Source: Kiritimatiellia bacterium (lineage in GTDB: Bacteria; Verrucomicrobiota; Kiritimatiellia; RFP12; DVOR01). From it: a DNA stretch of 64,000 nt. The stretch lies in NCBI GenBank assembly GCA_017558005.1, contig JAFYWN010000009.1:13072-77071 (forward strand), read 5' to 3'. The notes below the pieces were generated by a model, which saw only the letters and a list, made by a program, of their open reading frames with translations, was not told where the DNA came from and made no database searches. A program made the translations under genes and the position numbers. Positions 1,621 through 11,434 of the stretch are shown here, piece after piece. Every line of letters starts with the position of its first letter. Position 1 is the first letter of the stretch.

Positions 1621-3231
1621 TTAGGAGAGCAGGGAGCGGAATTTGAGGTTGAATTTCGCGAGGTATTTTGAGAGTCGGTCAGTGTGATTGGCCGACTTTT
1701 TTGCGCGCATGGAGACGGCATAGAGTTTACGGGCGGCATCTGCCATGGAGTCTGAGGTGCGGCAGACGCGAATGACGTGGGCGAGCTGCACGAGGTCAAA
1801 GGCGTCGTAGTGTTCGGCATAGTCTGCGCCGAGGTGGGTGGCGAGGAGGTTTTGCGTCTCGGCATCGTCGGATGCTTGGTCTGCGGGGGTGGGGGTGACG
1901 CGCGCAATTTCTTCTTCTACGAGGTCTAAGGTGATACGACCGCCATCGGCGAGGGTTCCCATGCGAGTGACCATGGCATTGAGATCACGGAAGTTGCCCT
2001 CCCATTGGGTGGTGGGATGAAGGGCGTAGTCTAAAAAGCGTTCGCGCGCCTGTTTGTTAAAGGAGATGAATTTTCCAGTGCGGGAGGCGTAACGATTGAG
2101 TTCGTACTCAAGGTTGGGGGCGATGTCTTCGCGGCGTGCGGCCAACCCCGGGAGGCAGAAGCTCCAGAGATTGATACGCGCCAAGAGGTCGCGACGGAAT
2201 TTGTTATTACGCACTTCGGCTTCAAGGTCACGATTGGTGCCGCAGATGAGTTGGAAATCACTCGTCTCATCGGCGGTGGCCCCGAGGGGACGGAAGGTTT
2301 TTTCTTCGATTGCCTTAAGGAGAAGGGTCTGCGCTTCTAAGGGGAGTTCGCCGATTTCATCCAAGAAGATAATGCCGCCATCGGCCTCTTTTAGGAATCC
2401 AGTGTGGTCGGTGCCCGCGCCAGAGAAGGCTCCCTTTTTATGACCAAAGAGGGCAGATTTCGCCAAGTCGCCGCCAAGGGTGGCGCAGTTGACAGCAACG
2501 AAGCGGCCCTTGACTTTACCCGTTTGCTTCTTGAGGAGATAGATTTGCTTGGCGAGTTGGGTCTTGCCGGCACCCGTGGGACCGCTAAGGAGAATGGGGT
2601 CAATCGAACGCACAGCGACGCGTTCAATCGTTTCAATCAACCTATTGAAGGCGGGGCTTTTGGTATCAATGCCCTGCTTTAGGAAGGTGAGGTCGTCTTG
2701 ACGTTCGGATTCAAAGCGTGTGGCGAGTTTGTCATAACGCGACAGGTCGAGGTCAATAATCGTGTGGGTGCCTTTGGGGTCTTTGGAGTGGCGGACGTGC
2801 CCCTCTTTTGGGGTGGTCTGAATGAGTTTGGCAGGGAAGTGCCTGGATTCTGCTAAGAGGAAGAGGCAGATCTGCTCCACGTGTGAACCCGTGGTCATAT
2901 GGATGTAATAATCAGTCTTTTCCTCGTGGAAACAGGGGCTTTTGGAGTAGTCATAGAATTTTTCATAGACCTCTTCAAAGTCCCATGGGTTCTGAAGCTC
3001 AATATTGTCAAAGATGACTTCCGTTTCGGGGGAGACGGAGGCGATGTCTTCTTTAATGCGGTTGGCAAGCGGTAGAAATTCACGATTGAAGATGAGGTGC
3101 AACTCATCAATGGGCAGGGTGTCTTGTTGGACAAGGCCAATGGTGGGGCGCCAAGTATCCCAACGGGTGGGGCCGTAGCCGCCATGTGCGTCTTTTTGTG
3201 TGCCAAGCACAGAGATAACGGTAGTCTTCAT
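1621..3231 (-). CDS. rtcR: RtcR, sigma-54-dependent activator with N-terminal CARF-like sensor domain
   Basis: 536 aa. N-terminus (VLGTQKD...RWDTWRPT...SVSPETEV...NPWDFEEVY...HMTTGSHVEQICLFLL) matches the RtcR-specific domain of E. coli RtcR as I recall it. AAA+ core has GPTGAGKT, GAFSGA loop and FLDEIGEL. Divergent from a sigma-54 promoter and rtcA/rtcB. Confidence 0.9.
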   Translation of the reverse strand: MKTTVISVLGTQKDAHGGYGPTRWDTWRPTIGLVQQDTLPIDELHLIFNREFLPLANRIKEDIASVSPETEVIFDNIELQNPWDFEEVYEKFYDYSKSPCFHEEKTDYYIHMTTGSHVEQICLFLLAESRHFPAKLIQTTPKEGHVRHSKDPKGTHTIIDLDLSRYDKLATRFESERQDDLTFLKQGIDTKSPAFNRLIETIERVAVRSIDPILLSGPTGAGKTQLAKQIYLLKKQTGKVKGRFVAVNCATLGGDLAKSALFGHKKGAFSGAGTDHTGFLKEADGGIIFLDEIGELPLEAQTLLLKAIEEKTFRPLGATADETSDFQLICGTNRDLEAEVRNNKFRRDLLARINLWSFCLPGLAARREDIAPNLEYELNRYASRTGKFISFNKQARERFLDYALHPTTQWEGNFRDLNAMVTRMGTLADGGRITLDLVEEEIARVTPTPADQASDDAETQNLLATHLGADYAEHYDAFDLVQLAHVIRVCRTSDSMADAARKLYAVSMRAKKSANHTDRLSKYLAKFNLKFRSLLS

Positions 3232-3251
3232 GAGGATAAGTTAACATAAAA

Positions 3252-3295
3252 CTGGATAGTTTGTCTATTTTTTTGGATAGTTTTTGTGGATAATT
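3252..3295. promoter_or_regulatory. three direct repeats TGGATA(G/A)TT, candidate RtcR upstream activating sites
   Basis: TGGATAGTTT at 3252-3261 and 3273-3282 (21-nt spacing, two helical turns) and TGGATAATTG at 3286-3295. They sit ~140-180 nt upstream of the sigma-54 promoter, with long A/T tracts between. Confidence 0.35.
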
Positions 3296-3433
3296 GTTAT
3301 TTTGTTGAAGGGGATGTTTGGAAGTTAGCCTTCATTGCCCGCACGCGTATTCTTTTACTATGGTAAGGGCGTGGGGGTGTTTTCATGTTTTTTTGATGAA
3401 AAAAAGATTTTTTGTTTTTTTTATTTCGGCATT

Positions 3434-3449
3434 TGGCACGGCAGGTGCA
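3434..3449 (+). promoter_or_regulatory. sigma-54 (-24/-12) promoter of the Rtc operon
   Basis: TGGCACGGCAGGTGCA versus consensus TGGCACG-N4-TTGCW. GG (3435-36) and GC (3447-48) are exactly 12 nt apart, with one mismatch. About 60 nt upstream of the ATG at 3511 and opposite rtcR. Confidence 0.65.
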
Positions 3450-3510
3450 ATGAAGACAGTGCTGGTTTGTCAATAAAGGTTTTGGCACGCAAGAAGAAAG
3501 GAATTTAAAA

Positions 3511-3972
3511 ATGAAAAAGAACGTATCGATTGCGCGAGCATTGAAGGAAAAGAATCGTATCGCAGGTCGGTTGCGACAGGCCTTGGAGGAAGTGGGAAAG
3601 GAAAACTCTCAAGATGTGCGTATTCCGCGTGGGGTTGATGTCTTGGAGATGTACGAACAAGCCAAGCAATTACGGGCACGATTGTTGGCTACGAAGCGTG
3701 CGATTGCGGAAGCCAACCATGCGATCGTCGGGAAGATTCTGGAGTTGGATGAGGTTAAGGCACAGATTGCCTTCTTGAATGGTCTGAATGTGAAGGAGGG
3801 GCGGTTTGTGACGACACGTTATTCGGAGACGATTGAAACGGAGGTGACGGCCGTAATTCAGAAGGCGCAAGTCTTGAAAGAAGTGGAGGTACTTCAAAAA
3901 CAAGCGGATGCGCTTCAAGATGAGTTGGATAACTTTAATGCAACAACGTTTGTGGAGATTGAAGTGGACTGA
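3511..3972 (+). CDS. hypothetical 153-aa all-helical/coiled-coil protein, first gene of the Rtc operon
   Basis: RBS aaagga 8 nt upstream of the ATG. Heptad-like charged sequence; the ends (SIARALKEKNRIAGRL... and ...LQDELDNFNATTFVEIEV) resemble, from memory only, the ~150-aa DIP1984/septicolysin-like family. Confidence 0.7.
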   Translation: MKKNVSIARALKEKNRIAGRLRQALEEVGKENSQDVRIPRGVDVLEMYEQAKQLRARLLATKRAIAEANHAIVGKILELDEVKAQIAFLNGLNVKEGRFVTTRYSETIETEVTAVIQKAQVLKEVEVLQKQADALQDELDNFNATTFVEIEVD

Positions 3973-3984
3973 GTAGGATTTAAA

Positions 3985-4146
3985 AAAGTCACACCGCTAC
4001 ATCTTCTGCAGGCTTATACCTGCATGACAATTAACGGGATTGAAACGCCCTCGCATGAGGTTTAAACCTTAAAGGGTAAGTGCTTAATCCGTAAATTGAA
4101 AAACTTAAATCGTAAACCTTATTTTTAGATGGAGTGATGTGACTTT
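3985..4146 (+). ncRNA. candidate structured RNA (long terminal stem plus nested internal helices)
   Basis: 3985-4004 pairs with 4127-4146: 18 of 20 positions (17 Watson-Crick, 1 G-U, 2 mismatches). Internal perfect hairpin tgcagg-cttata-cctgca (4007-4024). Nested helices 4034-4041/4086-4092, 4048-4051/4073-4076 and 4058-4061/4066-4069. No credible ORF in the 291-nt gap. Confidence 0.35.
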
Positions 4147-4205
4147 CTCTCAAGGGAATTAGGGTGAAAACGTTATGAACCTTGGGAGTTTTCTTTTTGA
4201 TTTTT
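4147..4205 (+). terminator. terminator-like or attenuator hairpin inside the operon
   Basis: ctctcaagg (4147-4155) pairs with ccttgggag (4180-4188): 9 bp with one G-U and a 24-nt loop, followed by ttttctttttgattttt. Confidence 0.45.
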
Positions 4206-4263
4206 GGATGAACAGCATGAGTGATGAGTAATTTCACTAAAAACTTGAACAAGGAGGTGACAG

Positions 4264-5424
4264 ATGAACATTATTAAGACTGGTGAATATTATCGTATTT
4301 TTGGCAATGGCGTTCAGGTTGGGAAGGTTCTATCCCCAGCGATGTATGAAGTCGTCTTTGTAAAGAATGATGGGTTTTATTTGCGTGCAACACCGAATCC
4401 AGTGGTACAAATTGGGAAGGTGTATGGTCGCATGACCGAACGGATTGAGAAGGTGCTAAAGAGTTATGCGCTTTCACAACGTAATTTAGGTGTGATTCTT
4501 TCTGGTGCGAAGGGCATTGGGAAGTCGCTCTTTGCAAAGTTAATTTCGTTACGGGCGATTGACGAGGGGCTACCTGTTATTATGGTAAACCAATACTATG
4601 AGGGTCTTCCACAATTCCTGGCGTCAATTGAACAACGGTGCATGGTGTTGTTTGATGAGTTTGATAAGAACTTCTTTGACCCTTCACGTGAAACAGAAGA
4701 TCATACTGCTGTACAAGATTCGTTTTTAACCTTGTTCGATGGAGTGTATGCGTCAAATAAGTTGTTTGTGATTACGGCGAATTCTTTGGGTAGACTCTCG
4801 GAATTCTTAATTAATCGTCCAGGACGTTTCCGTTATCACTTACGCTTTACTTATCCCGATGAGGCAGAGATTCGCCAATTTTTAAAGGATCAATTAGGCG
4901 AGGCTGCAAATCCAGAAGAGGTTGATAATGTGGTTAAGTTTTCCACGATGGTCCCATTATCGTATGACTGTCTTACTGCGATTGCTTCAGAATTGGTTTT
5001 AGGAGAGAGTTTTGATGCGTGCCTTGAAGTGCTCAATATCTTGAATGTGACGGGTTATCACTACTACAGTGCACGGGTGCGCTTTGCAAGTGGTGAAGAA
5101 TTGCAACAGCGTTGGGTTGGGCAGCATAACTTCTTTGATAAGTCGCGCGATGCGATGTATCTGAATATTGATCTTGAAGGCATTTCAGGCACTCAGGAGG
5201 TGGAACTTGGCACACTATTAATGAAATGTGGTGATGTTCGAAAGTGTGGCACGTTTTTGCAGGATGGTAGTATTGTTATTCCATACGAAAACGGTCGTAA
5301 CTTTCGTTGGGTACAAAAGAGCTCAAAGGGTCGCCAATTGGATGAGCGCTACAAGGCACCAATAGAATTGATCTTAGAGTCTGGGGCTGGGCACCGTCAA
5401 GTTTCATTTAAGGATTTGTTTTAA
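4264..5424 (+). CDS. classical-clade AAA+ ATPase with unique N- and C-terminal domains
   Basis: RBS aggagg. Walker A GAKGIGKS (nt 4504-4527), Walker B MVLFDEFD, sensor-1 VITAN, second region of homology RPGRFRYHLRFTYPD. The ~75-aa N-terminal and ~130-aa C-terminal regions are unrecognised. Confidence 0.85.
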   Translation: MNIIKTGEYYRIFGNGVQVGKVLSPAMYEVVFVKNDGFYLRATPNPVVQIGKVYGRMTERIEKVLKSYALSQRNLGVILSGAKGIGKSLFAKLISLRAIDEGLPVIMVNQYYEGLPQFLASIEQRCMVLFDEFDKNFFDPSRETEDHTAVQDSFLTLFDGVYASNKLFVITANSLGRLSEFLINRPGRFRYHLRFTYPDEAEIRQFLKDQLGEAANPEEVDNVVKFSTMVPLSYDCLTAIASELVLGESFDACLEVLNILNVTGYHYYSARVRFASGEELQQRWVGQHNFFDKSRDAMYLNIDLEGISGTQEVELGTLLMKCGDVRKCGTFLQDGSIVIPYENGRNFRWVQKSSKGRQLDERYKAPIELILESGAGHRQVSFKDLF

Positions 5425-5453
5425 GGTCTAATCGCATAAGAAAGAGGTGTAAG

Positions 5454-6365
5454 ATGAACGAACAAACACGTAAATTTGATATCTATCAAGGGCATGGTGA
5501 TCACAATGAATGCGTGAATGGCTATGAGAATGAGGCGGAGTTTTTTGGCGAGTGGTTGCCTCGTGCGTGCCAAGAGGGGACTGTTCTGGCTGCTACAAAT
5601 GAAAAGGTGCAATGGTATCGTGAAGCGGATGAAGACGTTAAAGACGGATTGAAAACGCTTGAAGAAGGGCATGTAGTATTGCTTGGAGATGGCTCCGGTC
5701 CTGTACGTTTGGCAGTTTTGTTGGTAGGGGATAAGGAAGAGAAAAAGTTTGAACTCGCCTCTTTCTATCCCGAATGCGATGGTGTCGCGGTTCGTATCCG
5801 TTTGACGGAGATTCATGAATGGGCTGCAGGGTTAGAGGCGACGTTAGAAGGTGAACTGGTTGACTGTGAAGATCGGCAAGTGGCTTTTTTTGACACGCGT
5901 TATGTCTTCAACAAAGATCAGTATAAGGTCGGTGAAATTTATACGTTTAATTTGGCGGCGCTTGCCAATACTGCGGAAGTTTTGCCAGAGGAGAGTCGTG
6001 AGATTCGCATTGAAGGTGAACGTGCGGTGGAACACTATCGGATGAGAGGTGAAGAAATTTCCTATGATGAATCGGGTAATGTGAAGCCGATAATCTTTCG
6101 ATTGGATGAGCTGGTGGCCTTGTTTCAATTGGATGCAGCTTATCCAGATGATGCGGAGTTTCAGTCTCCAGTAATTGATGATGTTGAAACATTTGAGAAA
6201 TTCAATACATCGTTTTACCAATTCAAGATTGGTATTGCGCGAGGGTGTGAAGAATCGGTTGAGATTCCCTTGATTGCAAAACAGGCACTGTTTAACGAAG
6301 TGCCAACCGTTGGTGAGCCTGTTCGTGGACATCTGTGGTTACATGGGCATTTGGTTTTAGGCTAA
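5454..6365 (+). CDS. hypothetical acidic protein (303 aa)
   Basis: RBS agaggt, 29 nt after the AAA+ gene and 23 nt before rtcA. By my count ~61 Asp+Glu versus ~29 Lys+Arg; no recognised motif. Confidence 0.7.
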   Translation: MNEQTRKFDIYQGHGDHNECVNGYENEAEFFGEWLPRACQEGTVLAATNEKVQWYREADEDVKDGLKTLEEGHVVLLGDGSGPVRLAVLLVGDKEEKKFELASFYPECDGVAVRIRLTEIHEWAAGLEATLEGELVDCEDRQVAFFDTRYVFNKDQYKVGEIYTFNLAALANTAEVLPEESREIRIEGERAVEHYRMRGEEISYDESGNVKPIIFRLDELVALFQLDAAYPDDAEFQSPVIDDVETFEKFNTSFYQFKIGIARGCEESVEIPLIAKQALFNEVPTVGEPVRGHLWLHGHLVLG

Positions 6366-6388
6366 AAAAAGTAGAAAGGATTTGAGAG

Positions 6389-7486
6389 ATGAGTGATGAA
6401 ATGATTGTGATTGATGGTGCCATGGGTGAAGGTGGTGGACAGATGCTGCGCACGGCGTTAACGATGAGTGCGGTAACTGGAAAGCCCTTTGAGATGGTGA
6501 ATATTCGTGCGAAGCGCGAGGTGCCAGGATTGCGGCGCCAACACTTGACGGGATTGCGCGCTGCTGCAGAGATCTGCGGAGCGGAGGTGACGGGGGATGA
6601 GGTTAAGTCGATGCGCGTGACCTTCCGTCCGGGCGCAATTAAGGCGGGCGACTACCGTTTTAGTATCGGGACGGCAGGGAGTGTGACCTTGGTGGCGCAG
6701 ACCGTGGTGCCGATTCTCTTGTGCGCAGATGCTCCTTCGAAGGTGGTCATCACGGGTGGAACACATGTATCAATGGCTCCTACGTGGGAATTCTTTGAGA
6801 AGACCTACGTGCCACAGTTGCAGGCAATGGGAGCAGAGGTCAAGGCAAAGCTGCGTCACTATGGCTTCTATCCTGCTGGCGGCGGTGAGGTGGTTTTGGA
6901 AATCCAACCTTGGAAGGTGGCAAAGCCTTTGGAACTGCTTACGCGTGGGCCGAAGGTGGAAACTTGGATTACGGCAAAGGTGGCGCATCTCTCGTTAGGG
7001 ATTGCTTCGACAGAGGCGAAGATTGTGTATGATCAATTGCCTGGGCGTGAGATGCGCATGCAAGTGGAGGAAGTCGGTTCGCATGGAACGGGCAACTACT
7101 GTTTGTTCGTGAAAAAGTGTCAAAACATCACGGCGGTCTTCTCGGAGATTGGAACGTATGGGAAGTCGCGTAAGGCGGTGGCGAATAGCGTGGCGCAGCA
7201 AGCGAAGGCCTACTTACGGGCAAGTTTCGTGGCGGATACGCACTTGAGTAATCAATTGTTGCTGCCCATCGTGCTCGCAGCCGATCGCGTGCCCGCAGAG
7301 AGTCTCTATTGGGGGAAGTTCTCAATGCCCCGAAAACATTCGCAACATTTTGATACGAATTGGGAGATCTTAAAATTGTTCCGCGAAGACTGCGCAATGG
7401 TAGAGGTGCCATCGAAACGATGCAAGTATACGACGAAGGTTTATATTGGTAAGAAAGGATTTGAAAATGAAGTGGCAGAAGCTTGA
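6389..7486 (+). CDS. rtcA: RNA 3'-terminal phosphate cyclase
   Basis: GEGGGQMLRTAL, PGLRRQHLT, GDYRFSIGTAGSVTL, HYGFYPAGGGEV, and C-terminal SQHFDTN carrying the candidate adenylylated His. Confidence 0.92.
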   Translation: MSDEMIVIDGAMGEGGGQMLRTALTMSAVTGKPFEMVNIRAKREVPGLRRQHLTGLRAAAEICGAEVTGDEVKSMRVTFRPGAIKAGDYRFSIGTAGSVTLVAQTVVPILLCADAPSKVVITGGTHVSMAPTWEFFEKTYVPQLQAMGAEVKAKLRHYGFYPAGGGEVVLEIQPWKVAKPLELLTRGPKVETWITAKVAHLSLGIASTEAKIVYDQLPGREMRMQVEEVGSHGTGNYCLFVKKCQNITAVFSEIGTYGKSRKAVANSVAQQAKAYLRASFVADTHLSNQLLLPIVLAADRVPAESLYWGKFSMPRKHSQHFDTNWEILKLFREDCAMVEVPSKRCKYTTKVYIGKKGFENEVAEA

Positions 7487-8702
7487 GGAAGGATTTCGCA
7501 TCCCGGTGAAGAGTTGGTGCGAAAATTGCGAAGAGGGGGCCGTCCAGCAGGCTGCGAATTTGGCAAAGCATCCGGTGCTCTTTAGTCATGTGGCATTGAT
7601 GCCGGACGCTCACCAAGGGTATGGAATGCCGATCGGTGGTGTGGTTGCCGCGGAACAGGCTGTGATTCCGGCGGCGGTCGGGGTGGATATCGGGTGCGGT
7701 ATGATTGCCGTTGAGACGGATATCCCGGCAGAACGTTTCGCAGAGATGTCTTTTCGGCGTGCCTTCCAGGAACGGTTGAAGGAGCGCATTCCTGTTGGGG
7801 ATGGGGTTTCTCATCAGACGACCCAAGATTGGGAAGGCTTTGAGGCGTATACGGCCAATAATTCCATGCGTGCAGATCTCTGGCCATTGAAGTTGGACCG
7901 TAAGAACTTAGGAACGCTCGGGGGTGGCAACCACTTCATTGAGTTGCAGAAGACCACGGCCTTAGATGGACAGGGAGAACCTGAAGGTGGAAGCAAGATT
8001 TGGTTGATGATTCACTCGGGATCACGCAACTTAGGAAAGCGGATTGAGGAACACTATCACCGCATTGCCAAGCGACTGTGCACGCGCTTCCATGTGCCGT
8101 TGGCAGATCCTGATTTGGCATTCTTGCCGATTGAGGAGGCAGAGGGACACCGTTACTTTACGGATATGCTCTTTGCGCTGCGTTACGCGAAGGAAAATCG
8201 TCGTCGCATGATGGAGGTGATGAAGGAAACGTTGGCCGAATTTGTGCCAGAGGTGAATTTCATCCAAACGATTGATATCCATCATAACTATGCAGCCTTC
8301 GAAGAACATTTCGGGAAGAAGGTTTGCGTGCACCGCAAGGGGGCTACCTCGGCGAAGCTCGATGAGATTGGTATCATTCCTGGATCTATGGGAGCCGCCT
8401 CCTATATTGTGCGAGGATTAGGAAATCCGCAGTCCTTCATGTCTTGCTCCCATGGTGCAGGACGAAAGATGAGTCGAATCTCGGCCTCCCGAAACCTCAC
8501 GGTAGAGGAGTGCGATAAGGCCATGGAAGGGATCGTGTGCGAACGCTGGCATGCGTATAAGGGTTATGGAAAGGCGAAGGGATGCCTCGACCTTTCGGAA
8601 GCGCCACAGGCCTATAAGGATATTGAAGAGGTCATTTCTGCTGAGACCGACTTGGTAGAACCTCTCGTACGCCTGGTGCCCTTGGCCTCTCTCAAGGGGT
8701 AA
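7467..8702 (+). CDS. rtcB: RNA-splicing ligase RtcB
   Basis: MPDAHQGYGMPIGG, GVDIGCGM, GGGNHFIE, HSGSRNLG, HHNY, HRKGA, SCSHGAGR. I prefer the ATG at 7467 (RBS aaagga) over the TTG at 7446; it overlaps the rtcA end by 20 nt. Confidence 0.93.
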   Translation: MKWQKLEEGFRIPVKSWCENCEEGAVQQAANLAKHPVLFSHVALMPDAHQGYGMPIGGVVAAEQAVIPAAVGVDIGCGMIAVETDIPAERFAEMSFRRAFQERLKERIPVGDGVSHQTTQDWEGFEAYTANNSMRADLWPLKLDRKNLGTLGGGNHFIELQKTTALDGQGEPEGGSKIWLMIHSGSRNLGKRIEEHYHRIAKRLCTRFHVPLADPDLAFLPIEEAEGHRYFTDMLFALRYAKENRRRMMEVMKETLAEFVPEVNFIQTIDIHHNYAAFEEHFGKKVCVHRKGATSAKLDEIGIIPGSMGAASYIVRGLGNPQSFMSCSHGAGRKMSRISASRNLTVEECDKAMEGIVCERWHAYKGYGKAKGCLDLSEAPQAYKDIEEVISAETDLVEPLVRLVPLASLKG

Positions 8703-8797
8703 GCCTGCGTCGTCTTCCCTCGGGGTGCGGTGGTGTGTCACAGGCAGTGGGGCGTGTGATCTGTCGGAGAAATTGAAAATGTAGGGGGCCATTGGGT

Positions 8798-8837
8798 ATG
8801 AAGCAAGACGCGTAGGGGCGTCTTGCTTCATTTTTTT
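8798..8837 (+). terminator. intrinsic terminator ending the Rtc operon
   Basis: Perfect 14-bp stem atgaagcaagacgc / gcgtcttgcttcat, 6-nt loop, then seven T. Confidence 0.8.
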
Positions 8838-9055
8838 ATGTGGGAGTGCTGAGGGGTGTGGTGCAGAGGTCGGGGGCTTTGGATGAAATGGAGGTTAAAA
8901 ATGCAACGTCGGGGGTGCTTTTTGTAGTTTTTAGTGTGAAAGGGTGAATTTTCAAGGTTTACATTACATTTGGAGTTGTGATATCATAGCCACATCTCTG
9001 ATGTAAGATGTAGACGGATAACTCCGTATTTTCTTGTTTCTCCCAATTTGTATTT

Positions 9056-9658
9056 ATGTCATTAGCATTTGCGTTGACCGGTGGTATAGCATGCGGCAAA
9101 AGTATGGCTGAGGCCTGTTTTGCGGCGTGTGGGTGTCGCGTTTTGGACGCAGATCAGGTGGTGCGTGATTTGGAATCTGCCGGTGGGGCGGCGGTGGCAC
9201 CGATTGTGGCACGATTTGGAGAAGGGGTGTTGGCTGCGGATGGCGGCATAGATCGTCAGGCGCTCGCATCAGAAGTCTTTAGCAATCCTGCGGCACGAAG
9301 GGAATTGGAACACATTGTTCATCCACTCGTGCGACGTGCAACAGAAGTGTGGTTGGGTCAAGCGGGGGCAGGGGAGATTTCGGTCTTCTCGGCAGCGCTA
9401 TTGTATGAGTGTGGGTGGGAAAAAACCTGGCAGGGCGTGGTGTGTGTGAAGGCTTCGCGTGAAACGCAAGTGCGCCGGATGTGTCAGGCGCGCGGAATGA
9501 CAGAGGCCGCCGCCGAAGCGCGCTTGAATGCGCAAATGCCCTTGGCGGAAAAGGTGAAACGTTCGGATTGGATTTTAGAGAATGATCATGACGATCCAGA
9601 GGCATTGAAACGCCAAGTCGAAGCATTGGTCGCCTCCTGGAAACGTAATCTCGATTGA
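9056..9658 (+). CDS. coaE: dephospho-CoA kinase
   Basis: 200 aa; P-loop LTGGIACGKS at the N-terminus; length and layout typical of CoaE. Confidence 0.85.
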   Translation: MSLAFALTGGIACGKSMAEACFAACGCRVLDADQVVRDLESAGGAAVAPIVARFGEGVLAADGGIDRQALASEVFSNPAARRELEHIVHPLVRRATEVWLGQAGAGEISVFSAALLYECGWEKTWQGVVCVKASRETQVRRMCQARGMTEAAAEARLNAQMPLAEKVKRSDWILENDHDDPEALKRQVEALVASWKRNLD

Positions 9659-9673
9659 AAGTAAGCAGAAATT

Positions 9674-11434
9674 ATGGAAGAAGAAGCTCAAAAGTTACAA
9701 GGACCTGCAAGTCGAGCCCGTCGCGTCGCAAGACCCAAAACGTTAGGTGAAAATACGCATCCGCGCGCTACACGGCCAATTGCAAAACCAAGAGCACCTG
9801 CAAAAACGAAAAGTGTCCCTGTGCCTGAGCCAGACTTCCCCGCACCTGAAAAGGTCATTTCTGGAGAACAATTTCCCTCAATGTTGCCCACTGAGCAGAC
9901 CATCGCCGAGTGCACCTCGCATGAGGTGGAGGGTGAGGTTGGGGGGCAACCCGATTTGATGGTGGAACCCACCCCCGCACCTGTGGTGGAACAACCCGAA
10001 GTGGTGATGCCGGAAGACCAAGGCACCCCAGAGCAGGGGGGCGAGGGCGGCCAACAGCAACGTTGGGAAGCGCGTAAAAATAAGTGGGATCGAAACGATA
10101 AGCGCAATAAGCAACAACGTCAAGGTGGGGACCGTCAACCGCCCGCACCGCAATATGAACCGCTCCCAGAAGATGCGCCGCCGCTTTACCTTAAGAAGTT
10201 GGATAAGGTCCCCTTTGAAGAATTAGTGGCGATGTTACCACCAGATCGTGCAGAAGATGCGATTAATTTGCGTCGTCACGAAGTGATTATGGAGTTGATT
10301 CGTACGTATCTGCGCCGTAAGGGGACGGTGATTGCTACGGGGACGTTGGAGACGTTAAATGAGGGCTTTGGCTTCTTGCGTTCGGCGGCAAACAACTATT
10401 TGCAGTGCCCGGAAGATGTCTATGTGAGCCAACAGCAGATTCGTCGTCATGGCTTGCGCACGGGTGATTTGATTGAAGGGCCTTTGCGTGAACCGCGTGA
10501 TCGCGACCGCTTCTTCGCATTGTCGAGCGTTTCCTTAATTAATGAGCTCCCCGTGGAGCAGGCGAAGCGTATCGCACACTTTGAATATTTGACGCCTGTC
10601 TTCCCGAATCGTCGCATCTTGTTGGAAACCGAACACGCCGAGTATTCCACTCGTGTGATGGATCTCTTTACGCCGGTGGGCTTTGGCCAACGTGGTTTGA
10701 TTGTGGCGCCGCCGCGCACGGGTAAGACGGTTTTATTGCAGAAGATTGCTAATGCAATCAGCAAAAACTATCCTGACGTGGAGCTGATCGTTTTGCTCAT
10801 TGATGAACGTCCGGAAGAAGTGACCGATATGCAGCGCAATACGAAGGCGCAGGTCTTCTCGTCGACCTTTGATGAAGAACCGCAACGTCACTGTGCGGTC
10901 TCCGAAATGGTGATTGAAGTGGCGAAGCGTAAGGTGGAGAGTGGCAAGGATGTGGTGATTCTCTTGGACTCTATCACCCGTTTGGCGCGTGCTTACAATA
11001 CCGCTGCGCCGCACTCCGGAAAAATCCTTTCGGGTGGTTTGGATGCCAATGCGATGCACAAGCCGAAACGTTTCTTCGGTGCAGCGCGCAACATCGAAAA
11101 TGGCGGTTCGTTGACCATTTTGGCCACGGCTTTGATTGAAACTGGCAGTAAGATGGATGATGTGATCTTTGAAGAATTCAAAGGCACGGGCAACATGGAA
11201 CTGAAGTTGGATCGCGGTCTTTCGGATCGTCGTATCTTCCCTGCAATTAATATCGAACTCTCGGGTACGCGTAAGGAAGATTTGCTGTTGCATCCCGATG
11301 AACTGTCACGTATTTGGTCGATGCGTAAGGTGCTCACGCCTGTTGGGCCCAATGAGGCAATGGATATCTTGTTGAAGCGCTTGCGCTTGACGGAAAACAA
11401 TATTGAATTCTTGATGAGCATCAAGGAAAACTGA
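9674..11434 (+). CDS. rho: transcription termination factor Rho with ~170-aa low-complexity N-terminal extension
   Basis: GFGFLR, QRGLIVAPPRTGKT, LLIDERPEEVTDM, ALIETGSKMDDVIFEEFKGTGNMEL. The extension is rich in P/E/Q/K/R. Confidence 0.93.
   Translation: MEEEAQKLQGPASRARRVARPKTLGENTHPRATRPIAKPRAPAKTKSVPVPEPDFPAPEKVISGEQFPSMLPTEQTIAECTSHEVEGEVGGQPDLMVEPTPAPVVEQPEVVMPEDQGTPEQGGEGGQQQRWEARKNKWDRNDKRNKQQRQGGDRQPPAPQYEPLPEDAPPLYLKKLDKVPFEELVAMLPPDRAEDAINLRRHEVIMELIRTYLRRKGTVIATGTLETLNEGFGFLRSAANNYLQCPEDVYVSQQQIRRHGLRTGDLIEGPLREPRDRDRFFALSSVSLINELPVEQAKRIAHFEYLTPVFPNRRILLETEHAEYSTRVMDLFTPVGFGQRGLIVAPPRTGKTVLLQKIANAISKNYPDVELIVLLIDERPEEVTDMQRNTKAQVFSSTFDEEPQRHCAVSEMVIEVAKRKVESGKDVVILLDSITRLARAYNTAAPHSGKILSGGLDANAMHKPKRFFGAARNIENGGSLTILATALIETGSKMDDVIFEEFKGTGNMELKLDRGLSDRRIFPAINIELSGTRKEDLLLHPDELSRIWSMRKVLTPVGPNEAMDILLKRLRLTENNIEFLMSIKEN

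Follow-up and report, generated by a model that had tools for sequence, protein, structure and literature searches.

The locus described here lies in a 64,000-nucleotide (nt) stretch of DNA from a Kiritimatiellia bacterium (assembly GCA_017558005.1, contig JAFYWN010000009.1, positions 13,072 to 77,071 of the forward strand), which we call the window, and it is built around rtcR, rtcA, and rtcB, the genes of the sigma-54-dependent Rtc system of RNA repair. Besides these, the window carries three additional genes, for a small helical protein of 153 amino acids (ORF153, for open reading frame), an AAA+ ATPase, and an acidic protein of 303 amino acids (ORF303), together with a non-coding gap. In this gap, which a first-pass annotation of the same DNA had called RNA-sized, we found a conserved structured RNA. 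The six genes with their gaps and overlap, as well as the sigma-54 site and the terminator, all lie where that annotation had placed them, according to the list of open reading frames and to motif and terminator scans (Table 1). We regard it as evenly balanced whether the whole locus is an RNA-damage response under RtcR and sigma-54 made of three parts, namely the rtc core, an ORF153-RNA module, and an AAA+/ORF303 cassette. The three additional genes had been taken earlier as one unit, and they separate instead into the latter two modules.

Table 1. Genes and other features of the rtc locus, in positions of the window
Feature	Position	Strand	Description
rtcR	1621-3231	-	CARF-like sensor, sigma-54 AAA+ activator, and helix-turn-helix
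sigma-54 -24/-12 promoter TGGCACGGCAGGTGCA	3434-3449	+	predicted; consensus match, divergent from rtcR
ORF153	3511-3972	+	153 amino acids; small helical protein, basic N-terminus
non-coding gap	3973-4263		291 nt, between ORF153 and the AAA+ gene
structured non-coding RNA	3979-4146	+	about 168 nt; covariance model R1
terminator-like hairpin and U-tract	4147-4205	+	at the 3' end of the RNA
AAA+ ATPase	4264-5424	+	386 amino acids; PHROG 2376, classical clade
ORF303	5454-6365	+	303 amino acids, acidic, all-beta; 29-nt gap after the AAA+ gene
rtcA	6389-7486	+	RNA 3'-terminal phosphate cyclase; 23-nt gap after ORF303
rtcB	7467-8702 (from ATG)	+	3'-phosphate/5'-OH RNA ligase
final intrinsic terminator	8798-8837	+	closes the gene block

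In its domains and catalytic residues, the core does not depart from an ordinary Rtc system. With 702 bits, RtcR passes the cut-off of 650 set for the NCBIfam equivalog RNA_repair_RtcR, and its Pfam domains (RtcR, 3.6e-71; Sigma54_activat, 7.7e-50; AAA_lid_14) give it the CARF-like N-terminus, the sigma-54 AAA+ domain, and the C-terminal DNA-binding region of this family. In the 64-kb window, a pattern scan found a sole exact match to TGGCAC-N5-KTGCW, and this is the promoter TGGCACGGCAGGTGCA. RtcA matches Pfam RTC (1e-70) and TIGR03399 (317 bits against a cut-off of 250) and aligns to E. coli RtcA across residues 3-298 only, and RtcB matches Pfam RtcB (3.7e-108). The catalytic signatures of both enzymes are retained, as had been claimed: RtcB keeps the metal and nucleophile residues of P. 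horikoshii RtcB by alignment (DIGCG, GNHF, HSGSR, HRKGAT, and HGAGR), and the nucleophilic histidine of RtcA is presumably that of SQHFDTN, which we aligned by eye to SCH309LLTN of the E. coli protein. The rtcB reading frame opens at a TTG at 7446, and its ATG at 7467 gives the 20-nt overlap with rtcA, whereas the end of the block is marked by a 14-bp stem (8798-8831, 7 GC pairs, 6-nt loop) followed by the T-run TTTTTTATGT. In agreement with the earlier reading, a Pfam scan of the six products found no TROVE, archease, PrfH, MoxR, or vWA domain. The E. coli rtcR/rtcBA system resembles the window in its RtcR domains, its RtcA and RtcB catalytic residues, and its -24/-12 promoter, and differs in that, in the window, an RNA gene and three further genes separate the promoter from the enzyme genes, and the order, rtcA-rtcB, is inverted. 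This inversion had been remarked upon before, and it does hold against E. coli, but it is not peculiar to the window, since it is the usual order in this clade.

A structured RNA next to ORF153

According to our comparative analysis, the gap holds a conserved structured RNA that is previously undescribed and has no match in Rfam. Alignment of the 450 nt downstream of the stop codons of ORF153 homologues in 22 loci showed that they share a conserved non-coding element, in which three motifs stand out (TAACGATGTTGAGACC, GGTTAAGGGCTTA, and TAAAACTTAT) and each copy ends in a hairpin and a T-run. Folded one by one for minimum free energy, 14 members agree in a stem between the 5' and 3' ends, a hairpin that varies, and another stem with two hairpins inside, and the whole gap of the window folds with a z-score of -3.35 against shuffled sequences. 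The RNA starts about 7 nt past the ORF153 stop codon, has a guanine-plus-cytosine (GC) content of 0.37 compared with 0.52 for the window, and consists of the terminal stem (P1), the hairpin that varies (P2), a stem P3 with hairpins P3a and P3b inside it, and an unpaired A-rich stretch in which GUAA recurs. The covariance model R1 (186 positions, 41 pairs), built on this shared structure, gave a single match in the window, at 113 bits (E 4e-22), and one match in each of 15 sister loci, all directly 3' of ORF153 and in its orientation. When JGI metagenomes were scanned for the motifs and then searched with R1, 11 further copies emerged, again all directly 3' of ORF153 homologues, bringing the total to 27 loci, and in 27/27 the RNA lies immediately 3' of an ORF153 homologue on the same strand.

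The fold is also borne out by covariation among 24 distinct sequences, where standard pairs fill 87.7% of the pair cells compared with at most 43% when the partners are slid by 1-3 columns, and where 23 of the 41 pairs show compensatory change compared with 11.8 +/- 2.1 in shuffles, a number reached by 0 of 500 of them. The 21-bp terminal stem P1 contains 14 of these pairs, and RNAalifold independently recovers P1 and P3a. A search of positions 3200-9100 with the 4227 covariance models of Rfam 15 at E <= 10 returned the final terminator as the sole match and none for the gap RNA, scans of eight sister loci at the Rfam gathering thresholds returned tRNA and rRNA only, and ARAGORN detected neither a tRNA nor a tRNA-like element in the window. 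In divergent ORF153 loci, the downstream RNA still folds with a terminal stem of the form GAAAC.../...GUUUC, and one of them, L125, scores 41 bits. With the filters off, R1 gave sub-threshold matches only in divergent loci, two of them correctly placed (L025 and L030), and therefore we have not merged these RNAs into the family and describe them as sharing its architecture only. A distant ORF153 homologue (32% identity) is encoded at 6001-6459 of L228, a 167-kb IMG/VR contig, without rtc genes within 6 kb; after it come about 250 nt of non-coding sequence, in which R1 finds no match and which close with a hairpin and a T-run. A likeness of the A-rich stretch to the 3' end of 16S rRNA, seen in some sister RNAs (UCGUAACA...AAGGUAA), was dropped because the window copy and other members lack it.

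Directly after the RNA, a hairpin with a 9-bp stem (4147-4188, -17.3 kcal/mol) is followed by UUUUCUUUUUGAUUUUU up to 4205, and at the equivalent place the hairpins of the sister loci are stronger, GC-rich, and followed by T-runs. From its sequence, this element resembles an intrinsic terminator, placed after ORF153 and before the AAA+ gene, and a simple terminator scan passed it over because its loop is long. Its position means that an uninterrupted single transcript is not guaranteed; thus, of the single co-directional block proposed in the first-pass annotation, the tight packing of the genes stands, whereas co-transcription of the whole block needs read-through of this hairpin. The AAA+ gene has a strong ribosome-binding site of its own, read from the sequence as GGAGG at 4253-4257.

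This arrangement could also mean that the structured element acts in cis, as an attenuator or riboswitch-like leader whose terminator gates read-through into the downstream genes, perhaps in response to ORF153 or to a damaged-RNA signal. We consider this unlikely, even though the hairpin and U-tract follow the structured domain directly in the window and in the sister loci, the element is placed in all rtc loci after the promoter-proximal ORF153 and ahead of the repair genes, and the window has no second sigma-54 site after it. The gene that keeps its place beside the element is ORF153, about 7 nt upstream, and no downstream gene does so: the next gene is convergent in L018, and in L021, L015, and L013 it is unrelated or annotated without a function. 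Moreover, pairing of the two ends in a terminal stem is typical of stable RNAs.

ORF153 itself has 161 homologues with the invariant motifs ARALKEKNR.AGRL and LQ..AD.LQD.LD.FN, and its AlphaFold2 (AF2) model, with a predicted local distance difference test score (pLDDT) of 85 and a predicted template-modelling score (pTM) of 0.73, shows four helices and a three-stranded sheet; the first 25 residues have a net charge of +7. Searches against Pfam, NCBIfam, PHROGs, and PADLOC gave only matches at noise level, those of PADLOC being coiled-coil noise, and a sequence-profile search of the PDB gave no credible match. The DIP1984 family (NF038048) is alike in size and gave a weak hidden Markov model match (E 0.013); with 15.7 bits, this falls far under the cut-off of 70, and it places residues 11-71 non-colinearly on profile positions 85-146. 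Foldseek gave a weak fold match (probability 0.87, template-modelling (TM) score 0.40) to PDB entry 3kdq, which we take to be the DIP1984 protein of C. diphtheriae. Given the low score, the non-colinear alignment, and the weak fold match, membership in DIP1984 was rejected, and it would in any case tell little about ORF153, because DIP1984 is itself without known function. Foldseek matches to connexins reflect a common topology only and were likewise set aside.

The promoter pattern TGGCAY-N5-KTGC is found upstream of ORF153 in most of the loci examined, including loci without nearby rtc genes, and the 27 loci matched by R1 nearly all have such a consensus site. The distance from the sigma-54 site to the ORF153 start is 41-77 nt in loci like that of the window, and 126-156 nt where there is extra leader sequence, which is mostly a tRNA or tRNA-like gene of 71-72 nt. 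Since the RNA directly follows ORF153 in 27 loci, and since the sigma-54 sites are present even without adjacent rtc genes, ORF153 and the RNA form, on comparative grounds, one self-contained sigma-54-driven module, with or without AAA+/ORF303 or rtc neighbours, and ORF153 is the predicted partner of the RNA. Two ORF153-RNA loci without rtc genes have RlaP just upstream (L013, 725-1795; L029, 534-1358), RlaP being an RNA-ligase-associated nucleotidyltransferase (PMC12776372). Downstream of the module, L013 has unannotated reading frames and a protein of 744 amino acids with a HIRAN domain (region 5928-8162).

Sister operons contain tRNA or tRNA-like genes in L012 (7902-7973 and 8706-8780), L014 (7897-7967), L016 (873-944), L029 (1551-1622), L024 (7897-7968), and L010 (7004-7155). 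They lie directly 3' of the sigma-54 promoter, about 30 nt before ORF153, or just before the AAA+ gene, and the ARAGORN assignments are Trp, Arg, Asn, and a "Leu" whose 72 nt fall short of the length of a genuine tRNA-Leu. Their placement suggests either an RtcR-driven supply of tRNA or tRNA-like sensors or decoys. In L008 (about 1710-1866) and its equivalents in L026 and L028, the sigma-54 site lies about 155 nt before the ORF153 start, and the leader is very GC-rich and self-complementary (GGGACCCCGGGCGGCGGGCGCGCCCGCCGCCCGGGG), so it may be another structured element; these three loci also have an Exo_endo_phos phosphatase and a reading frame of 149 amino acids between rtcA and rtcB.

The tight coupling of a protein gene to an RNA and a terminator recalls the known type III toxin-antitoxin loci, in which the RNA precedes the toxin gene and is made of tandem repeats. 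Accordingly, ORF153 and the RNA might be a toxin-antitoxin or decoy pair, in which the RNA neutralises ORF153 or serves as ribonuclease bait whose cleavage feeds the RtcR signal. The GUAA motifs repeated in the single-stranded stretch of the RNA and the tRNA or tRNA-like genes predicted in the same transcript of sister loci would suit such a pair, as would the finding that RtcR of Salmonella binds tRNA halves with a cyclic-phosphate end and thus senses cleaved tRNA (PMC7790460). Here, however, the RNA follows the gene and has a single complex fold, ORF153 is unlike known toxins (the PADLOC matches being noise, as said above), and control by sigma-54 and RtcR suits an induced response more than a constitutive addiction module, for which reasons we hold this alternative to be the least probable of those considered, and very unlikely.

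We compared 12 distinct rtc loci (Table 2). ORF153 with its RNA occurs in 10/12 of them, compared with 6/12 for ORF303 and 5/12 for AAA+, and by this count the ORF153-RNA module is the commonest Rtc accessory in the clade. Homologues of all three additional genes thus occur beside rtc genes in other genomes and in several gene orders, contrary to the first of the outcomes that, by the first-pass annotation, would have refuted its reading. A GTDB contig labelled Candidatus Spyradenecus sp. has the same locus (97-99% protein identity), ORF303 is identical to an NCBI protein from a metagenome-assembled genome (MAG) of Kiritimatiellae, and all the relatives are from MAGs of the rumen or gut that bear the label Kiritimatiellae, Lentisphaerae, or "Verrucomicrobia". 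Among the neighbouring genes, a 23S rRNA gene starts about 250 nt downstream of rtcB in L006 (11454-11828). In the window, positions 9674-11434 encode a Rho-like protein of 586 amino acids (seen from its translation only), whose N-terminus is extended by about 190 residues of low complexity, with many P, E, and Q; its gene comes after a reading frame of 200 amino acids resembling dephospho-CoA kinase.

Table 2. Gene order in the 12 distinct rtc loci (R, rtcR; 153, ORF153; AAA, AAA+ ATPase; 303, ORF303; A, rtcA; B, rtcB)
Locus	Arrangement
window, L011, L110	R / 153-RNA-AAA-303-A-B
L012, L041	as in the window, with inserted tRNA-Arg and tRNA-Asn
L001	R / AAA-303-A-B
L006	R / 153-RNA-303-A-B
L008	153-RNA'-A-EEP-x-B-AAA-303
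L010	tRNA-tRNA-AAA-303-RlaP-RlaP-A-B
L017, L019, L020, L022, L026, L028	153-RNA-A-(...)-B

The AAA+ ATPase and ORF303

The AAA+ protein, which the first-pass annotation could not assign to any known RNA-repair accessory, is a member of the large phage family PHROG 2376 (E 4.3e-91, residues 1-299 on profile positions 1-293 of 363), for which we know of no reported function. It also matches Pfam AAA (PF00004; 4.4e-9, 37.3 bits against a cut-off of 21.2), and the motifs GxKGIGKS, FDEFDK, T.N, and NRPGRFRYH, which cover the Walker A, Walker B, sensor-1, and arginine-finger regions, are invariant in the family. Its placement in the classical clade was right, since its nearest relatives in the PDB are VAT, Cdc48/p97, Afg2, NSF, Msp1, and Mpa. 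The likeness to the Cdc48/p97/VAT unfoldases, the best matches of solved structure (E 2.5e-12 to 1e-9), covers the ATPase core, whereas the protein has one AAA+ module in 386 amino acids and unrelated N- and C-terminal domains; it is predicted to be unfoldase-like.

Homologues of the ATPase number 2369 in the protein collection, and matches were found in 376 phage records. The phage proteins (such as EF24C ORF215 and phiL47 orf101) share with it the N-terminal domain, Walker A and B, and NRPGRF, and they repeatedly have tRNA neighbours, as do the Kiritimatiellia copies in L010 and L012; they differ in the C-terminal domain of about 90 residues and have no ORF303 partner within 5 kb. In phage phiL47 (L134), the homologue at 6001-7077 is followed by tRNAs from 7106, in EF24C (L136) tRNAs at 2058-4630 precede the homologue at 5001-6092, and the homologue in Lactobacillus phage Iacchus has an RNA ligase at a distance of 3.4 kb; E. 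coli phage alia has no annotated tRNA near its copy. Among 80 IMG/VR loci, 21 have a tRNA within 1 kb of the homologue, often at 28-97 nt, and the remainder have none within 5 kb, with some loci (in the set L188-L215) having up to 22 tRNAs within 5 kb. This proximity to tRNA genes is therefore recurrent in the family and not universal, as a count made without a formal test against chance.

ORF303 is, as had been noted, acidic (pI 4.5, net charge -32), and it represents a large family without annotation in the libraries that we searched. It had no match in Pfam, NCBIfam, PHROGs, or PADLOC and nothing credible in a sequence-profile search of the PDB. All three additional proteins lie, as the first-pass annotation supposed, outside the characterised Rtc-accessory families in the profiles of these four libraries. 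Likewise, a literature search, to whose coverage the survey of Burroughs and Aravind (2016) did not belong, found no paper naming these families as Rtc accessories. A profile search of 1.84 billion representatives gave 995 ORF303 clusters (50% identity) at E <= 0.001, with 640 at E <= 1e-10, and the conserved motifs are FDxxQGHGDH, YPECDG, HEWAAGxEATLEG, AFFDTRY, and YPDDAEFQSP. Its AF2 model is all-beta (pLDDT 88.8, pTM 0.85), and Foldseek against the PDB and BFVD found no global fold match, the top matches having TM scores below 0.2 except for partial matches of a barrel domain: ModG (1h9k) at probability 1.0, with TM scores of 0.26 (query) and 0.48 (target); Lef-3 at probability 0.87, with a TM score of 0.19; and Rpb8 and Teb1, also partial. 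These amount to a weak, partial similarity to OB-like or Mop-like barrels. Many relatives (in the set P0325-P0467) are fusions of 500-1000 amino acids whose other regions have no match in Pfam, NCBIfam, or PADLOC, the exceptions being one N-terminal ASCH domain and one protein with Sel1 repeats, too little to assign a function.

ORF303 lies directly 3' of AAA+ in 5/5 of the distinct rtc loci that have the ATPase. The two genes (4264-6365) have a GC content of 0.44, compared with 0.53-0.54 for rtcR and rtcAB, and this fits a separate cassette that was acquired later, by horizontal transfer. One may ask, then, whether AAA+/ORF303 is a mobile conflict cassette, for defence or counter-defence, that uses the stress promoter of the rtc genes and stands outside RNA repair. 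Its GC content below that of its neighbours, its varying position within rtc loci, the occurrence of the AAA+ family mainly in phages, and the matches of AAA+ to the anti-phage ATPase IetA (the only matches among the PADLOC defence models, and weak at E 9e-5 and 20 bits) would all agree with it. So would the full-length ORF303 homologue (42% identity) encoded between the type I-C genes cas4 and cas1 at 8001-8906 of L003, and also in L004 and L005; in L003, a Fic-domain gene lies just upstream of cas4. The neighbour genes of distant ORF303 homologues are unrelated. Against this idea, the cassette stands beside rtcA or rtcB in at least four arrangements (L001, L008, L010, and the window), and independent insertions of this kind are hard to explain without a functional link. 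The copy in L010, moreover, sits with two RlaP genes and with tRNA genes, and the phage AAA+ homologues lie beside tRNA arrays and in one case near an RNA ligase; taken together, these neighbours point to RNA and tRNA biology for AAA+/ORF303, and we find a role in conflict alone improbable, to about the same degree as the cis-acting leader.

Proposed mechanism and its meaning

The boldest reading, which we hold to be somewhat less likely than not, is that ORF153 and the 168-nt RNA form a new ribonucleoprotein (RNP) that belongs to the RtcR/sigma-54 regulon at any genome position and is co-transcribed with tRNA or tRNA-like genes in sister genomes. This RNP would act, independently of Ro, as a platform on which cleaved tRNA or rRNA is sensed or repaired, with the phage-derived AAA+ and the acidic ORF303 first clearing the nuclease or a stalled complex. 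In the mechanism that we favour, RtcR would activate the sigma-54 promoter upon tRNA damage, and ORF153 and the RNA would be made first and form the RNP, with ORF153 binding the RNA through its basic N-terminal helices. The hairpin and U-tract of the RNA would end the transcript or allow partial read-through, and this read-through of 4147-4205 would be needed for the expression of AAA+, ORF303, RtcA, and RtcB from the RtcR promoter. The RNP might then help RtcA and RtcB to find, hold, present, or protect broken tRNA or rRNA, as Ro and Y RNA supposedly do in Salmonella. With ORF303 as its adaptor or substrate receptor, the Cdc48-like ATPase would dismantle protein-RNA complexes, be it a ribonuclease toxin or a stalled complex on a cleaved tRNA or ribosome, a clearing step that would keep the repair from being futile, and afterwards RtcA would heal the RNA ends and RtcB would seal them. 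What we observed are the conserved parts, the fold of the RNA, the sigma-54 sites, and the patterns of linkage; from them we infer the course of events, and its last three steps (the help given by the RNP, the ATPase step, and healing and sealing) are hypotheses.

The closest known counterpart is the Salmonella operon rsr-yrlBA-rtcBA, where rtcR is also divergent from a sigma-54 promoter, where non-coding RNA and a non-enzymatic protein are also encoded before the ligase and cyclase in one block, and where the Y RNA also has a long terminal stem pairing its 5' and 3' ends. The window differs in lacking TROVE/Ro, ORF153 being a helical protein of 153 amino acids without a Ro-type ring, and in having an RNA without an Rfam match or a tRNA-like domain, the order rtcA-rtcB, and a terminator-like hairpin after the RNA. 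Compared with a Ro60 (Rsr)/Y RNA module, then, the TROVE protein is absent, and of the features of Y RNA and YrlA the terminal stem is the only one that we found. The first-pass annotation had proposed that the AAA+ ATPase and its partners replace Ro and Y RNA or act on damaged ribosomes or tRNAs before end-healing and sealing; if any part of the locus fills that slot, it would be ORF153 with its RNA.

Several points weigh against the preferred reading. The whole proposal is drawn from comparative sequence analysis, and the sequences belong to one clade of gut and rumen MAGs, whose kinship inflates some of the counts. ORF153 has a pI of 6.0, is near-neutral overall, and has no recognised RNA-binding domain, and linkage is the one ground for predicting that it binds the RNA. 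The RNA lacks a tRNA-like domain, a Ro-binding motif, and an Rfam match, which makes the analogy with Y RNA positional only, and within its fold RNAalifold favours another small central hairpin and covariation is lower in P3 and P3b, so the central helices are less certain. The hairpin is weak in the window (folding z-score -1.43), and hence may or may not hold back the downstream genes. As for ORF303, its strong acidity argues against plain RNA binding, it is found also in a CRISPR-Cas locus and in unrelated gene contexts, and no relative of it was found within 5 kb of the phage AAA+ genes or in viral contigs.

The in vivo targets of RtcA and RtcB, and the reason why some operons include an RNP such as Ro/Y RNA, are unsettled matters, and the ORF153-RNA module, together with AAA+ and ORF303, suggests that bacterial RNA repair has another accessory kit next to Ro and Y RNA. 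If the proposed RNP is real, a second, unrelated protein-RNA module would occupy the same operon slot, and this would suggest that an RNA cofactor is a general need of the pathway and no mere oddity of Salmonella or Deinococcus. Being made of a protein of 153 amino acids and a 168-nt RNA of defined fold, the module is directly testable. The tRNA and tRNA-like genes behind RtcR-type promoters hint, in addition, at the replacement of tRNAs besides their repair. Finally, the AAA+/ORF303 cassette gives a first functional context to PHROG 2376, which is present in hundreds of large phages and often by tRNA arrays, and to the family of ORF303, with its roughly 1000 clusters.

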